From: Vicinamibacterales bacterium
Lineage (GTDB): Bacteria > Acidobacteriota > Vicinamibacteria > Vicinamibacterales > CAVVIG01
DNA: 64,000 bases
Assembly: GCA_965197865.1 (NCBI GenBank)
Contig: CBDANZ010000005.1
Location: 247,793-311,792, forward strand
Reading direction: 5' to 3'
Part shown: one piece after another, positions 10,190 through 59,190 of the stretch
Position numbering within the stretch: the first letter of the stretch is position 1
Layout of the letters: each line of letters starts with the position of its first letter
The notes under the pieces: generated by a model
The model's input: only the letters and a program-made list of their open reading frames with translations
Told to the model about the DNA's origin: nothing
The model's database searches: none
Made by a program: the position numbers and the translations under genes

Positions 10190-10525
10190 TCAGAAATGAC
10201 ACGTAATGCATCCGTTCGGCGGAGCTATTTCCATGATGACAGTTCACGCAGAATCCGATGTCCACGCTCGGTAGTCCAGCGATCGGCCCTTGGCGGCGCT
10301 CTCGTGGCAGTACTCAGTGCAGCCGAGCTTGTTCTCGACATGCACCTGATGAGAAAACTCGGTGGGCCGCTCGGGCCGCGGCTTCACCCAGAAGAAATCG
10401 TTGATGGCCTCACGCAGGGAGCTGTTGGCCGGCGTGAAGACCGATGACCGCCGATCCAGCGATGAACAGCCGTCGAGGGCGCTCGACAAAGGCCCCTGCT
10501 GGAGCAAGCGGCAGGTGCGGCGCAT
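10190..10525 (-). pseudogene. small multihaem cytochrome c (ActA/c7-like), disrupted
   Basis: ATG 10525 with GGAG upstream. FSHQVHVENKLGCTEYCH (CXXCH 10304-10321) and CITCHF-stop (10196-10210) share one frame but are separated by TGA 10244-10246. A third CXXCH (CVNCHH, 10233-10250) lies across that stop in another frame. Ends 13 nt before the molybdopterin gene. Confidence 0.6.
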
Positions 10526-10777
10526 CTTCCCTTGGTCTCCTTTCACCAACGAGCTGGATTCTAGCGTAACAAAGATGGAGCCAGCAACCCGCCGAGCCGA
10601 GTCGCGGGACGTTGCGGAGGGACGGCCGAGAGTCGAGGCGCGTCTCGGACGGGGCTGCGACGGCGGGAGTCGGGGAGCGTGGTGCCTCCCCTGCGGCGGA
10701 GACGTCCCACATGTAAGAACAATTCTGGCGCGGTGCGCTTCAGATGTGTCAGTATGCAACCGAGGCGAGGGACGATC

Positions 10778-10987
10778 ATGAGCTTCTGCGAGCATTGTGA
10801 AGGTCAGCGATTTGATCGGGCGCAAGTCCTCCGAGTCCTACGGACTACGCGAAAAAACGTACGGAAGCAAAACCAGGCGTCTCGTGCCGATGAAGTGTTA
10901 GGTGCGGCCATCAAGGCTGTGCGTGCCTTGGAAATTCCCCACCTCGAACACCTGGACGAACTGTTCGACGAACAGATCGTTCACTGA
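10778..10987 (+). CDS. hypothetical protein (69 aa)
   Basis: ATG 10778 preceded by GAGGCGAGGG. MSFCEHCEGQRFDRAQVLRVL... No family recognised. Confidence 0.3.
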   Translation: MSFCEHCEGQRFDRAQVLRVLRTTRKNVRKQNQASRADEVLGAAIKAVRALEIPHLEHLDELFDEQIVH

Positions 10988-11406
10988 CGATGTTGTTCTG
11001 GCGATGGACACGACGAGGGAGTTCTTTCCCTGTCGGTCTCGACTCTCCCTTGGAGGACAGCCCCGTCGGCCATGGCGAAACGATACGCGAAGACGTCACC
11101 TTCCACAAATCCCGTCGCTCGGAGGTCGAGCTTTTCCCTTGCCGTGACGTTTCCGAGCACGGTGCCGTCAATCGTGATCGTTCTTGCGACGAGGTCGGCT
11201 TTGATCGTCGCGTCAGCCCCGATGGTCAAACCGTGGTCGCCGACCTCGATCGTTCCCTCGAGCTTACCGTCGATGGTGAGATCGCCGGAACAGACAACGT
11301 CACCTCTCACGAAAACAGACTTGCCAATGCACGCCGCTAGACGCCGCTCATCAAGCGCTGGCTTCACCTGTGCTTGTGTCCTCTCCCGCTCGGAGCCATT
11401 CAACAT
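10981..11406 (-). CDS. bactofilin (polymer-forming cytoskeletal protein)
   Basis: Beta-helical repeat GDVVCSGDLTIDGKLEGTIEVGDHGLTIGADATIKADLVARTITIDGTVLGNVTAREKLDL. ATG 11406 has a GGAGAG SD. The ORF is open up to 11490. Confidence 0.85.
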   Translation of the reverse strand: MLNGSERERTQAQVKPALDERRLAACIGKSVFVRGDVVCSGDLTIDGKLEGTIEVGDHGLTIGADATIKADLVARTITIDGTVLGNVTAREKLDLRATGFVEGDVFAYRFAMADGAVLQGRVETDRERTPSSCPSPEQHRQ

Positions 11407-11648
11407 CTTGCTCTCCGCTTGTACAGCAACCTGGGATGATATCCGCACAATTAGCCGTCGCCCAATCGCCTCCAACGTCCCAGGCTTCATTCTCGCTGGC
11501 GACGCGTCTTCAGTTCGTGGCGCCGCGGGCTTCCACCGCAGAGCGGTCGCGCGCTCCGACGCGCGGAGATTCGTAGATACTTAACGATATCAAGATGTCG
11601 ATTTACCTGGCGTGGTTAAGTGCCTCCGTGCGGCCGCAGTGTTGAGAT

Positions 11649-11730
11649 GGCACTGTTAAGTTGCTGGCAAACACCCCAAAACATGCACGCACTATGTTGC
11701 GCTCCTAGGTGGACCTGACAGCAATCCCTT
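11649..11730. repeat. 82-bp dispersed repeat, copy A
   Basis: GGCACTGTTAAGTTGCTGGCAAACACCCCAAA..CACTATGTTGCGCTCCTAGGTGGACCTGACAGCAATCCCTT. About 88% identical to 27186-27266. Confidence 0.85.
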
Positions 11731-11934
11731 GGGCGTCAGTGGAGCGATTTTTCGTCAACTTGACGATACCGCGGTAGGTGATTGCAGCTGGATTTGACGC
11801 GACTTGATCGCGCGGTCGGAAATAGTACTAATACGCGACGGCTCTTTTTCGTGGGCCGCACGGTGAGCGACCGGTCACAGCGCGTTGAGGCGCTGGGGGG
11901 GTGTCGCGCTCCACAGGGTAAGGACTAGTTAACG

Positions 11935-57497: not shown

Positions 57498-57564
57498 GGG
57501 GTTCTCCTGATCTGTCGCGGGGGTGGATATGGTATGCCTTTCGGTGTGTATGTGGAAGCAACCC

Positions 57565-57578
57565 CCAATCTAGATTGG
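57565..57578. promoter_or_regulatory. 14-bp perfect palindrome CCAATCTAGATTGG in divergent intergenic region
   Basis: Read directly. Lies between the divergently oriented reductase (57497) and methyltransferase (57659) genes. Confidence 0.25.
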
Positions 57579-57658
57579 TCGCGATGAGCGCCGTGCTGAT
57601 TGGCGATTCCCCGCGTAAGAGGAAGCTGATGGCATTGTAAAGCGACGCGCCCGGTCTG

Positions 57659-58096
57659 GTGGTTCCTCCCCCGGTCATCTATCTTCCGGCGGTCGTGCTG
57701 GGCTTCCTGACGGACCGGCTCTGGTCCGTCGCGTTCCTCCCGGATGTGCTGCAGTATGTGTTGGGAGGGGCGCTCATCGCGATGAGCCTCGCGATCATGC
57801 CATGGGTCTTGCGCGAGTTCGCCAAAGCGGGGACACACTTCGACGCCCGCAAACTCGTCGTGGCGCTCATCACGGGTGGTCCGTTCCGATTCTCGCGCAA
57901 TCCGTCATACGTCGCGATGACTCTGCTCTGTATGGGTGTCGCGGTCGTCACCGATACGCTGTGGATTCTCTTGTGGCTGGTGCCGGCGGTGCTGATACTT
58001 GATGTTGCCGTCATCCGGCGTGAGGAGCGATTCTTGGACCAGAAATTCGGCGAGGTCTATCGTGACTGCACGCATCGGGTCCGACGATGGCTGTGA
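57659..58096 (+). CDS. isoprenylcysteine carboxyl / phospholipid methyltransferase-family membrane protein
   Basis: ..ITGGPFRFSRNPSYVAMTLLCMG..VIRREERFLDQKFGEVY.. typical ICMT/PEMT core. 145 aa. Confidence 0.75.
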   Translation: MVPPPVIYLPAVVLGFLTDRLWSVAFLPDVLQYVLGGALIAMSLAIMPWVLREFAKAGTHFDARKLVVALITGGPFRFSRNPSYVAMTLLCMGVAVVTDTLWILLWLVPAVLILDVAVIRREERFLDQKFGEVYRDCTHRVRRWL

Positions 58097-58361
58097 AGGG
58101 CCATCCAGCCAGGATGGTCCCGGTCTCTTCCGGCCTAAGGAATTGCGCGTCGACGCAACTTCAACTAAATGCAACGGCGTCAGAAGTAATCTGTCCGACG
58201 ATATCATAGAGACGGCTAGAAGGCCGAGGCGTAGCTCACGATCATCGGCTGACCGTGTACTCCAGAAGAACGATCCCGGACTTCGGGTACACGCGTTCCT
58301 TGCGCAATGCTAGCTTGGTCGGCGAGACTGGCGAGGGAAGCATCTTAACGAGGAGGTTCGG

Positions 58362-59190
58362 ATGTCTTGGCTGAAGCGAATTGGCGCGAGGCTACTCCTG
58401 GTCAGCGCATCGCTTGTTCTTGGGCTCGCCATTACCGAGGGGTTCTTGAGAGTGTTTCTTCCAATGCCGTTCACCGCGGAGTATGTCCGGCCGGACGACA
58501 AGTTGTACCGGGTGCCGAGGGAGAACTTCAGCGCGACACTGACGACGGATCACACGTTCACGATCGAGACTAACTCTCTGGGCCTGCGAACGGCGCGGGA
58601 AGTGGATTCGAAACCCGATGGTGTCGGTCGCGTGCTCGTCATCGGGGACTCGTACACGTTCGGGACCGGGGTATCGAACGGCCAGACGTATCCCGATTAC
58701 CTGGAGCGGATCCTGAATTCTGAGCCGACTGTGCTTGATGTGGCGCCGGCACGATACGGCTGCCGTCCGCTTCAATCTGACCGGGTCAGCCCGTCTGGGC
58801 CACCACGACCACATCCTGTGGCAGCGGATCCGGTCGCCGTTCTGTCGCGGGAGCTCTTCACGGAAAGTCTTACTGATCTTTACGAGATTCTTGCGGAGTA
58901 CCGACAGGTGGCGAATCAGGAAGTGCCGCTAGTGTACACAATCGCTCGGGACGACTGGCCACTGTACGAGTTCATCGAAAGTTGAGCTCGTAGAGAGGAG
59001 GCGACACGTGACCGCGTGTCGTTCGTCGACACCACAAGGCTATTTCGCTGGGTGACTCCAGGATCGGAAGCCCCAGACCAGTTGGTTATTGACTGCTACA
59101 ATCTCCATGCGGCCGCGCATTGGAGCCCGGAAGGCAATGCTCTCGTGGCATGGGAGCTGGCACAAGCGATAGACAAGTTGGTTGGGACGT
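58362..59190 (+). pseudogene. SGNH/GDSL hydrolase with in-frame TGA (and doubtful mid-section)
   Basis: Anchor, block I VLVIGDSYTFGTGV. TGA 58983-58985 is followed in the same frame by ..VSFVDTTRLF..DCYNLHAAAHWSPEGNALVAWELAQAI (block V). Confidence 0.6.

Follow-up and report, generated by a model that had tools for sequence, protein, structure and literature searches.

Recurrent gene lesions and mobile-element insertions in a 64-kb stretch of a Vicinamibacterales genome point to real pseudogenisation of accessory genes

Results

Lesions recur in independent assemblies of related strains

The stretch analysed here, referred to as the window, comprises 64,000 nucleotides of contig CBDANZ010000005.1 from a Vicinamibacterales bacterium (GCA_965197865.1) and holds about a dozen genes broken by stop codons, frameshifts, deletions or transposable elements (Table 1). 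We find that these interruptions very probably represent real pseudogenisation, accompanied by mobile-element activity, in a population that is losing accessory genes, and neither sequencing error nor an altered genetic code. Our annotation assigns 55% of the window to intact coding sequence in open reading frames (ORFs) and 23% to pseudogenes or remnants; mobile elements make up 7%, and the remaining 15% is intergenic or unknown. Codon-usage segmentation, which tolerates stops and frame changes, independently flagged the same disrupted places as a previous sequence-only reading, which had weighed real decay against consensus error.

Sister-strain contigs from four other ENA samples were reached via a protein match at 97% identity. 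They provide the loci L099 (ERZ25074053, 1.0-Mb contig, 9x tag; 97.9-99.2% identical to the window), L101 and L102 (ERZ25766727, 1.5-Mb contig, 7x tag; 99.5-99.6%), L103 to L105 (ERZ28763718, 2.86-Mb contig, no coverage tag; 98.0-98.7%), L106 (a second contig of ERZ25074053, 198 kb, 9x tag; 98.0-98.7%) and L107 (ERZ25072076, 36-kb contig, 3x tag; 99.93-99.98%). Because their single-nucleotide polymorphisms (SNPs) and the positions of their insertion sequences (ISs) differ from those of the window, these contigs represent independent assemblies of distinct strains.

Lesions in the ActA, TBDR2, ABC_sub_bind-TolC, M4 protease, DUF4188, DinB and SGNH-like genes, as well as the glycosyltransferase TGA and the NrfH frameshift pair, are common to the window and sister assemblies, with exact truncated products on two to three contigs each. 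Strains that are free of a lesion show the ancestral codon (CGA at 58983 and CAA at 59280 in L099, CAA at 18228 in L103), an intact DinB gene or an empty insertion site, while the ancestral states of the ABC_sub_bind-TolC, glycosyltransferase and ActA genes were deduced from more distant homologues. The disrupted genes behave as unitary pseudogenes: homology extends across the lesion, relatives hold an intact ortholog or the ancestral codon, the lesions are reproducible (HugZ and rsmI excepted) and constraint is relaxed. The recurrence of lesions in independent assemblies and the ancestral states in other strains strongly support the earlier proposal that accessory genes have been genuinely pseudogenised, and the comparison with close relatives that it called for returns either the same lesions or ancestral states at the sister loci. 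The sister loci refute, for most homopolymer indels, its counter-proposal of an artefact (the TBDR2 C-run indel is in L101 and L103, the additional A of DinB in L107); HugZ and rsmI are the sites to which it may still apply.

Substitutions between strains show relaxed constraint in the disrupted genes. The ratio of nonsynonymous to synonymous polymorphism (pN/pS) ranges from 0.73 to 2.2 in disrupted and from 0.32 to 0.48 in intact genes, with small counts per gene. Against L103, pN/pS is 0.32 for intact genes (65 synonymous and 61 nonsynonymous changes) and 0.75 for disrupted genes (17 and 37), with a pS of 0.024 in both (Fisher, P = 0.015). The corresponding values are 0.48 and 0.73 against L102, and 0.45 and 2.2 against L099. 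Small frame-disrupting indels between the window and L101/L102 likewise avoid intact genes, which hold at most one of the eight (about 55% expected; P = 0.018). The long genes named earlier as intact (RND pump, molybdoenzyme and receptor) are indeed so, and the lesion in ActA lies less than 50 nt from an intact 2.3-kb gene.

Alternatively, low coverage in a long-read metagenome assembly could have produced the lesions as consensus or assembly artefacts, in the form of unsupported single-nucleotide variants (SNVs) and indels, haplotype switching and false deletions. The 3x-9x tags, the reports of indels and SNVs introduced by assemblers, the variable HugZ run and the position of several indels in short runs speak for such an origin. 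Nevertheless, three other samples yielded independent assemblies that differ from the window in SNPs and IS content and yet carry the same lesions, lesion-free strains have an undamaged ancestral codon or an unoccupied insertion site, and the target-site duplications (TSDs) of two miniature inverted-repeat transposable elements (MITEs) are perfect. Furthermore, the lesions respect gene boundaries, and pN/pS of the disrupted genes is raised at equal pS in the comparison with L103. Polarised substitutions number 32 on the window branch and 53 on the sister branch, so the window assembly, whose own branch is no longer than that of its sister, is not unusually noisy. Transposon insertions, deletions and truncations are structural damage, for which base-level error therefore cannot account. 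We consider artefact as a general explanation very improbable.

Several points weigh against real decay. The evidence for the lesions consists entirely of assembled contigs, and the coverage tags of the sister contigs are only 3-9x. Lesions are not uniformly distributed, as had been noted earlier, with 20 point lesions falling in 12 of 44 genes where random placement gives a mean of 15.4, but this clustering is only modestly significant (simulation, P(<=12) = 0.03). The pooled counts (87 synonymous and 91 nonsynonymous changes in intact, 26 and 65 in disrupted genes; Fisher, P = 0.0017) enter a test that counts some window-branch changes twice. The rsmI frameshift, the internal frameshift of the IS110 element and both MITE copies are seen in no second assembly, and the HugZ C-run varies between C2, C3 and C4 even in comparison with the near-identical L107, in a CCTGG context; the empty sites and target duplications nonetheless argue strongly that the MITE insertions are real. 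The names of the sister contigs are metaMDBG-style. Were one sequencing platform common to all assemblies, a systematic error could repeat itself, although it could not explain sites that vary between strains. A 2025 preprint reports that long-read metagenome assemblers introduce SNVs and indels that lack any read support, with thousands of genes affected, and that contigs from metaMDBG and metaFlye contain such indels (bioRxiv 10.1101/2025.04.22.649783).

A narrower possibility is that only the private single-base indels, those in the HugZ C-run near 54935 and in rsmI near 495, are artefacts and that the remaining lesions are real; we regard this as a serious contender, at a little under even chances. 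L105, L106 and L107 have C2 and an intact HugZ-like gene of 269 aa, the window has C3 and L102 has C4. CCTGG is a motif with methylation-linked nanopore miscalls, which counts in favour of an error, as does the status of rsmI as a conserved housekeeping gene. Conversely, two assemblies depart from C2 by different lengths, as is compatible with slippage in a dead gene, a two-base run is normally called correctly, and L107, at 3x, could itself be wrong. The C-run may have arisen by stepwise slippage after the gene had died, or it may be a consensus error at CCTGG, and we do not count this lesion as securely real. In rsmI, the Pfam match of the first frame is restricted to profile positions 1-135 of 212, and the second frame carries the remaining RsmI motifs (YLGFPP...VLFEAPHR...RELTK).

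Table 1. Disrupted genes, remnants, mobile elements and nonsense codons in the window
Feature	Position	Strand	Observation
rsmI (TP_methylase) gene	123..1188	-	Single frameshift at ~495; no sister locus covers it
ActA-like multihaem cytochrome c pseudogene	10190..10830	-	Paired shift; deletion of ~80 codons
Old multi-frameshift gene remnant (fossil gene)	14266..15234	-	Protein-like stretches in three frames
TBDR2, CarboxypepD_reg/TonB-dependent-receptor-like gene	15822..18392	+	Three lesions
CarboxypepD_reg receptor N-terminal remnant	22044..22872	-	Pfam CarboxypepD_reg domain only, 246-aa ORF; coding frame switches
IS3-family element	23204..24480	+	Pfam orfA HTH_Tnp_1, orfB HTH_21 + rve + rve_3, in overlapping frames
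Amidase C-terminal remnant	35535..36053	+	Pfam Amidase positions 320-443 of 445 only; upstream space too short for the rest
M4 (thermolysin-like) protease remnant	36065..37393	+	Pfam FTP; Peptidase_M4 positions 2-95 of 145
ABC_sub_bind-TolC fusion pseudogene	37245..38580	-	Four lesions
MITE copy A with nested IS110	45525..47048		TSD CTAG; IS110 at 45533-46898 interrupts the left terminal inverted repeat
DUF4188/Monooxy_af470-like pseudogene	47055..47595	-	Frameshift at ~47266 and further decay
PMT_2/ArnT-like glycosyltransferase pseudogene	48827..50488	+	MITE insert; CGA>TGA at 50150
MITE copy B	about 49054-49209		154 nt, TSD ATAG, within the glycosyltransferase gene
NrfH/NapC-like tetrahaem cytochrome gene	50711..51346	-	Paired frameshift, ~50935 to ~50850
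HugZ-like (CREG_beta-barrel + DUF2470) gene	54366..55266	-	Extra C in C-run 54933-54936; Pfam fragments in different frames
DinB_2 gene	55660..56250	+	1-nt insertion (A>AA) at 55834-55835
SGNH/GDSL-like gene, 479 codons	58362..59803	+	CGA>TGA at 58983, CAA>TAA at 59280, 2-nt (CT) insertion at 59447-59448
IS5-family element	59945..61425	-	Pfam DUF772 + DDE_Tnp_1, intact 474-aa transposase, TSD TTAG
Nonsense codon	18228	+	CAA>TAA; CAA in L103
Nonsense codon	37650	-	CGA>TGA; Arg in 41/57 aligned homologues, Gln in 7
Nonsense codon	38346	-	TGG>TGA; Trp in 40/48 aligned homologues
Nonsense codon	50150	+	CGA>TGA; Arg in 3/3 close homologues
Nonsense codon	58983	+	CGA>TGA; CGA in L099
Nonsense codon, absent from the earlier list	59280	+	CAA>TAA; CAA in L099

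Stop codons are transitions in genes that carry other damage

All six stops listed in the sequence-only reading are present (TGA at 10244, 37650 and 38346 on the minus strand and at 50150 and 58983 on the plus strand, TAA at 18228 on the plus strand). Homology continues past them, with the Pfam OMP_b-brl_4 match spanning 18228, 79 homologues spanning 38346 and 37650, three homologues (41-46% identity) spanning 50150 and an unbroken 479-codon ORF in a sister strain at 58983. The description of the TGA codons as tryptophan-compatible is correct for 38346 only; 37650, 50150 and 58983 stand at arginine positions, and 10244 is a frame-1 codon within a stretch whose true frame is 0, hence an out-of-frame stop that the frameshifts expose and no substitution at a conserved residue. 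With 59280 included, there are six true nonsense changes (three CGA>TGA, two CAA>TAA and one TGG>TGA). The proposed TGG>TGA route therefore accounts for one of six and is not a recurrent one, whereas its premise of a single G:C>A:T transition holds for every one of them. After base-composition normalisation, an AT-biased spectrum was not found on the window's own branch (18 GC>AT against 11 AT>GC changes at 63% G+C).

In-frame TGA codons followed by homology resemble stop-codon reassignment (tables 4 and 25) or selenocysteine recoding, and one could propose that they are translated as tryptophan or glycine, as selenocysteine or by read-through, in genes that still function. Homology does stay in frame after four TGA codons, one of which lies at a conserved tryptophan. 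The true TGA sites, in contrast to such systems, are at arginine in three of four cases and at tryptophan in one, and the homologues have W or R, not C, at the stop columns. The TAA codons at 18228 and 59280 behave alike, the genes with TGA are also frameshifted, truncated or hit by a MITE, and TGA is the commonest genuine stop, terminating 17 of 31 intact genes. The genome has 63% G+C, a tRNA scan of the window detected no tRNA gene and an Rfam scan of it gave zero matches of any kind. On the grounds of the arginine positions, the like behaviour of TAA, the additional lesions, the use of TGA as terminator and the absence of any hint of a recoding apparatus in the window, we reject recoding as having next to no probability, and we infer that TGA is read as stop in the source organism.

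Paired frameshifts in cytochrome and receptor genes

The three local excursions into another frame that had been noticed earlier, in TBDR2, the NrfH-like gene and ActA, are real pairs of +1 and -1 shifts, each with a net change of zero and 65-111 nt between the two indels. In TBDR2, an A is inserted near 17327 (GGCG(A)CCGATGG) and a C5 run is shortened to C4 near 17434, 111 nt apart, and the third lesion is the TAA at 18228. The alternative frame between about 17327 and 17434 reads DGRLLRQITFRGRGELEASDVVASGCVQDHWRVSP (beginning with DGRLLRQITFRGRGELEASDVV), to which homologues match at 60-80% identity. The indel pair is common to L101 and L103 and the TAA to L101, while L103 has CAA at 18228 and an 810-codon ORF that is complete save for 37 scrambled codons. 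Because L103 has the pair together with a full ORF, the pair predates the TAA, and it may originally have been a frameshift that was compensated while the gene still worked. The TBDR2 pN/pS between the window and L103 is 0.7-0.85, which suggests a gene that was already under little constraint. Two further observations concern the same gene: a 3-nt (CAA) in-frame indel between strains at 17747, and an IS1595-type element that follows TBDR2 in L103 (13674-14570).

The ActA-like gene is read in frame 1 up to CTEYCHESAAKG, in frame 0 over GPIAGLPSVDIGFCVNCHHGN and again in frame 1 from PPNGCITCHF, with the shift near 10290 and the return near 10225. Orthologous ActA proteins from metagenome loci have about 210 aa and five CXXCH motifs; alignment with these orthologs shows that about 80 codons with haem motifs 2 and 3 are gone here between LPSV and GFCVNCH. 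The window shows zero differences from L101 and zero indel differences from L103 in this gene, the exact 183-aa product is found on three contigs, and the truncated ORF is 183 aa long in all six cluster members. The Act-like operon as a whole extends over 5196-10830, and its intact ActB-like, FeS, NrfD and ActD genes have pN/pS values of 0.15-0.35 (purifying selection). Checked against alternative complex III, the locus combines these intact components with a frameshifted ActA in which two haem motifs out of five are missing; within the window, neither ActE nor ActF was found beside ActD.

The excursion in the NrfH-like gene is based on a three-frame reading, a CXXCH motif and a weak PDB match to the NrfH structure 2j7a (E = 0.0014). 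Only the alternative frame, from about 50935 to 50850, brings out the third CXXCH motif (YQPYQNRECLSCH). L102 and L107 have the same pair, and L102 adds a 2-nt deletion of its own.

The pairs could be selected compensated frameshifts in genes that still function and that encode a short novel peptide segment. Their net-zero change and close spacing fit this proposal, as do the full but scrambled TBDR2 frame of L103, the constant 183-aa ActA in six cluster members and the purifying selection on ActB to ActD. The TBDR2 pN/pS, however, is high, the NrfH pair comes at the cost of a haem-binding motif, a main-frame stop lies within the excursion of ActA, a gene that has also lost two haem motifs, and all three genes carry or gain more lesions, so we judge such selection unlikely. 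The likeliest history is a first hit followed by a compensating or a second hit: after an initial frameshift, a compensating one would have recovered most of the protein ahead of the final loss, as in TBDR2, or, alternatively, two hits would have struck a gene that was already dead. Our confidence is low as to whether selection played a part.

The fossil gene at 14266..15234, for which no gene is called at the same place in L101 or L103, is one T shorter than both at 14521 and one T longer at 14650, two sites 129 nt apart. These indels are a fourth +1/-1 pair, recent and specific to the window.

Further disrupted genes and remnants

The sequence-only reading had not registered the TAA at 59280, the CT insertion, the shift near 38500, the truncation at 37245, the ActA deletion, the MITEs, the IS3 and IS5 elements or the remnants. 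The single frameshifts that it had reported are all present (rsmI at about 495, IS110, DUF4188 at about 47266, HugZ-like at 54933-54936, DinB_2 and M4 protease), with the DinB-like one at 55834-55835 instead of about 55850.

Four lesions accumulate in the ABC_sub_bind-TolC fusion gene: a frameshift near 38500 that leaves the signal peptide in another frame, TGG>TGA at 38346, CGA>TGA at 37650 and a 3' truncation at 37245. The fusion family is real, with 79 homologues of 600-700 aa, and homology stops abruptly at residue ~447 of 678, the last ~230 codons being lost. Every lesion is common to L102, and an exact 220-aa fragment occurs on three contigs. The truncated gene abuts the M4 remnant on the opposite strand and the amidase C-terminal remnant; an IS110 insertion downstream of the TolC fragment was considered and is ruled out by the Pfam matches to amidase and M4 protease. 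In the M4 remnant, the propeptide is encoded in another frame than the beginning of the catalytic domain, the 3' end is cut off, and there is no indel difference from L102. The amidase remnant is in L102 and not in L104. Strains L104-L106 lack two blocks made up purely of pseudogenes and remnants (35628-38685 and 48832-51494), and their junctions show overlaps of 10-14 nt. The comparison suggests that dead DNA was deleted or, alternatively, that the blocks were acquired in an ancestor of the window's strain.

In the glycosyltransferase gene, a MITE sits between PQIDH and RGALDEGFVETG, and its excision in silico restores the motif of the homologues (PQIDHRGALDEGFVETG). These homologues (41-46% identity) have arginine at the stop position and no insert; a TGA at 49061 belongs to the MITE itself. 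L102 and L107 share the TGA at 50150, and L102, which is without the MITE, has its own 1-nt deletion at 49439. In the DUF4188 gene, the Pfam match covers positions 1-44 of 118 only and the IVQYWRSFEQ motif is in another frame, a state that is the same in L102 (65-aa call). DinB_2 is intact (196 aa) in L102, L105 and L106, and its insertion is common to the independent assembly L107.

The SGNH-like ORF is intact in L099 and L100 (P0255), all three of its lesions are identical in L107, and its pN/pS exceeds 1. Permuted SGNH fragments or tandem paralogues were considered for 58.3-59.5 kb and are ruled out by the single natural 479-codon gene of L099. Across the P0255 cluster, the gene is intact on five contigs, and elsewhere its products are 194+289, 376, 329, 428, 253+243 and 100 aa long. 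The gene is thus broken in at least six other ways on these contigs, which points to recurrent independent inactivation in the population.

Mobile elements

The MITE is 154 nt long and non-coding, with terminal inverted repeats of 18-21 nt and a long stable hairpin (-79.6 kcal/mol). Its two copies, the number found in a search of only the 64 kb, are 99% identical; copy A was located at 46899-47054 and, with the part cut off by the nested IS110, spans 45525-45532 and 46899-47048. Both sites are empty in L102, where each TSD sequence occurs once. The terminal repeat CAGTCCGTGGTGAAAGTC matches the right end of the IS5-family element, CAGCCCGTGGTGAAAGTC, which is likely to be the autonomous partner of the MITE, judging from this match. 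The IS5-family element combines a DDE_Tnp_1-type transposase with a 4-bp TSD; its site is empty in L099 (single target copy) and occupied by the element in L107. L107 has an extra IS5-family copy (5425-6915), corresponding to window position 55273-55276.

The IS110 element nested in MITE copy A has DEDD_Tnp_IS110 and Transposase_20 domains (Pfam) split over two frames, which bears out the frameshift reported for its transposase. The VWA gene, which encodes 318 aa in L102 and 299 aa here, has lost its first ~17 codons to the MITE/IS110 insertion. The IS3-family element is absent from L103, where the flanks are otherwise collinear and the empty site has the target sequence in a single copy. Its orfA and orfB stand in a -1 frame relation, and in our analysis this frame change is apparently the family's usual programmed one and not a lesion. 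L099 has an IS3 within the carbamoyltransferase gene, which is intact in the window, plus a loss of ~830 nt (11996-14233).

Other features of the window

The gene content of the window, which includes CarboxypepD_reg-type TonB receptors, an RND/MacB efflux set, the Act-like operon, DUF885 and DinB (Pfam), fits Acidobacteriota. One window protein has its best GTDB relatives in Vicinamibacteria metagenome-assembled genomes (MAGs) at 64-66% identity, and a contig scan with the Abhydrolase_10 protein yielded relatives only at 66% identity or below, with no synteny for the flanking genes. A repeat of ~82 nt occurs at 11649-11730 and 27186-27266 (82-97% identical; no Rfam match), upstream of a TonB-receptor gene (11935) and of an unknown ORF region from ~27268, respectively, and could mark a regulatory region common to both loci or be a further small repeat element. 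We also observe two inverted-repeat pairs in upstream or intergenic DNA, 51264-51290 with 58235-58261 (27 nt, 96% complementarity) and 44371-44420 with 48743-48792 (50 nt, 80% complementarity). In a small Zn-ribbon gene, the copy number of a 9-nt tandem repeat (GACAAGACG) at 2875-2883 differs between strains, in frame.

Discussion

The comparison with sister strains shows that genes are inactivated by G:C>A:T stops, by indels of 1-2 nt, by larger deletions or truncations, or by insertion of an IS5-family element, its MITE derivative, an IS3 and an IS110. Dead genes then gather further strain-specific lesions. Such secondary lesions differ between strains, with a MITE in the glycosyltransferase gene here and a 1-nt deletion in L102, which also has the 2-nt deletion in NrfH. 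In a last step, two blocks of dead DNA, absent from some strains, would have been removed by deletion. A more far-reaching version holds that rapid genome erosion, of a type usually associated with host restriction or population bottlenecks, is under way in a seemingly free-living, Vicinamibacteria-like lineage that is present in at least five separate metagenome samples, and that some frameshift pairs and the 183-aa ActA are tolerated or functional; this we consider improbable.

It is usual to dismiss frameshifts and stops as errors when they occur in low-coverage long-read MAGs, and here cross-sample comparison shows that almost all are real. ORFs of this kind are accordingly best annotated as pseudogenes, not 'repaired', and the pseudogene load of a MAG can carry biological meaning. 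The window documents active IS5/MITE, IS3 and IS110 transposition, as well as stepwise gene loss (inactivation, extra lesions and loss of dead DNA in some strains) inside a single species-level population from a soil phylum that has received little study. Its nonsense mutations, G:C>A:T transitions without exception, form a small natural sample.

With respect to known mobile elements, members of the IS5 family and their MITE derivatives generate 4-bp target duplications at YTAR-like sites. The elements described here agree in the DDE_Tnp_1/DUF772 transposase, the 4-bp TSDs (TTAG, CTAG and ATAG), the matching terminal repeat and the MITE hairpin. They differ in that ATAG is not a strict YTAR site and in that the MITE repeat and the left IS end agree only over the first ~10 nt, and the family is assigned solely from Pfam domains and TSDs. 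Some IS110-family elements target repeated palindromes or terminal repeats, such as repetitive extragenic palindromic (REP) elements. The DEDD_Tnp_IS110 and Transposase_20 domains, the precise insertion inside the MITE inverted repeat and the lack of obvious terminal inverted repeats of its own place our element close to these systems, from which it differs by its frameshifted transposase and by a target specificity deduced from a single insertion. Both the MITE/IS5 pair and the nesting of IS110 in the MITE add new examples to element types already known.

No paper dealing with the pseudogene load of Vicinamibacteria came up in a literature search; the pattern itself is familiar and mechanistically nothing new, in a lineage that is unstudied. 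Expansion of pseudogenes and ISs under relaxed selection or small effective population size is known from Shigella, Yersinia pestis, Burkholderia mallei, Sodalis glossinidius and Mycobacterium leprae. Unlike those organisms, the one studied here is uncultured, with relatives from metagenome assemblies, several of which carry soil-type contig names, and no evidence of host restriction, and only 64 kb are covered, which may be an unusually variable region. What it shares with decay of the Shigella and Y. pestis type is the mixture of nonsense, frameshift, deletion and IS lesions, often several per gene, together with strain-variable ISs, dead DNA that is absent from some strains and a raised pN/pS.

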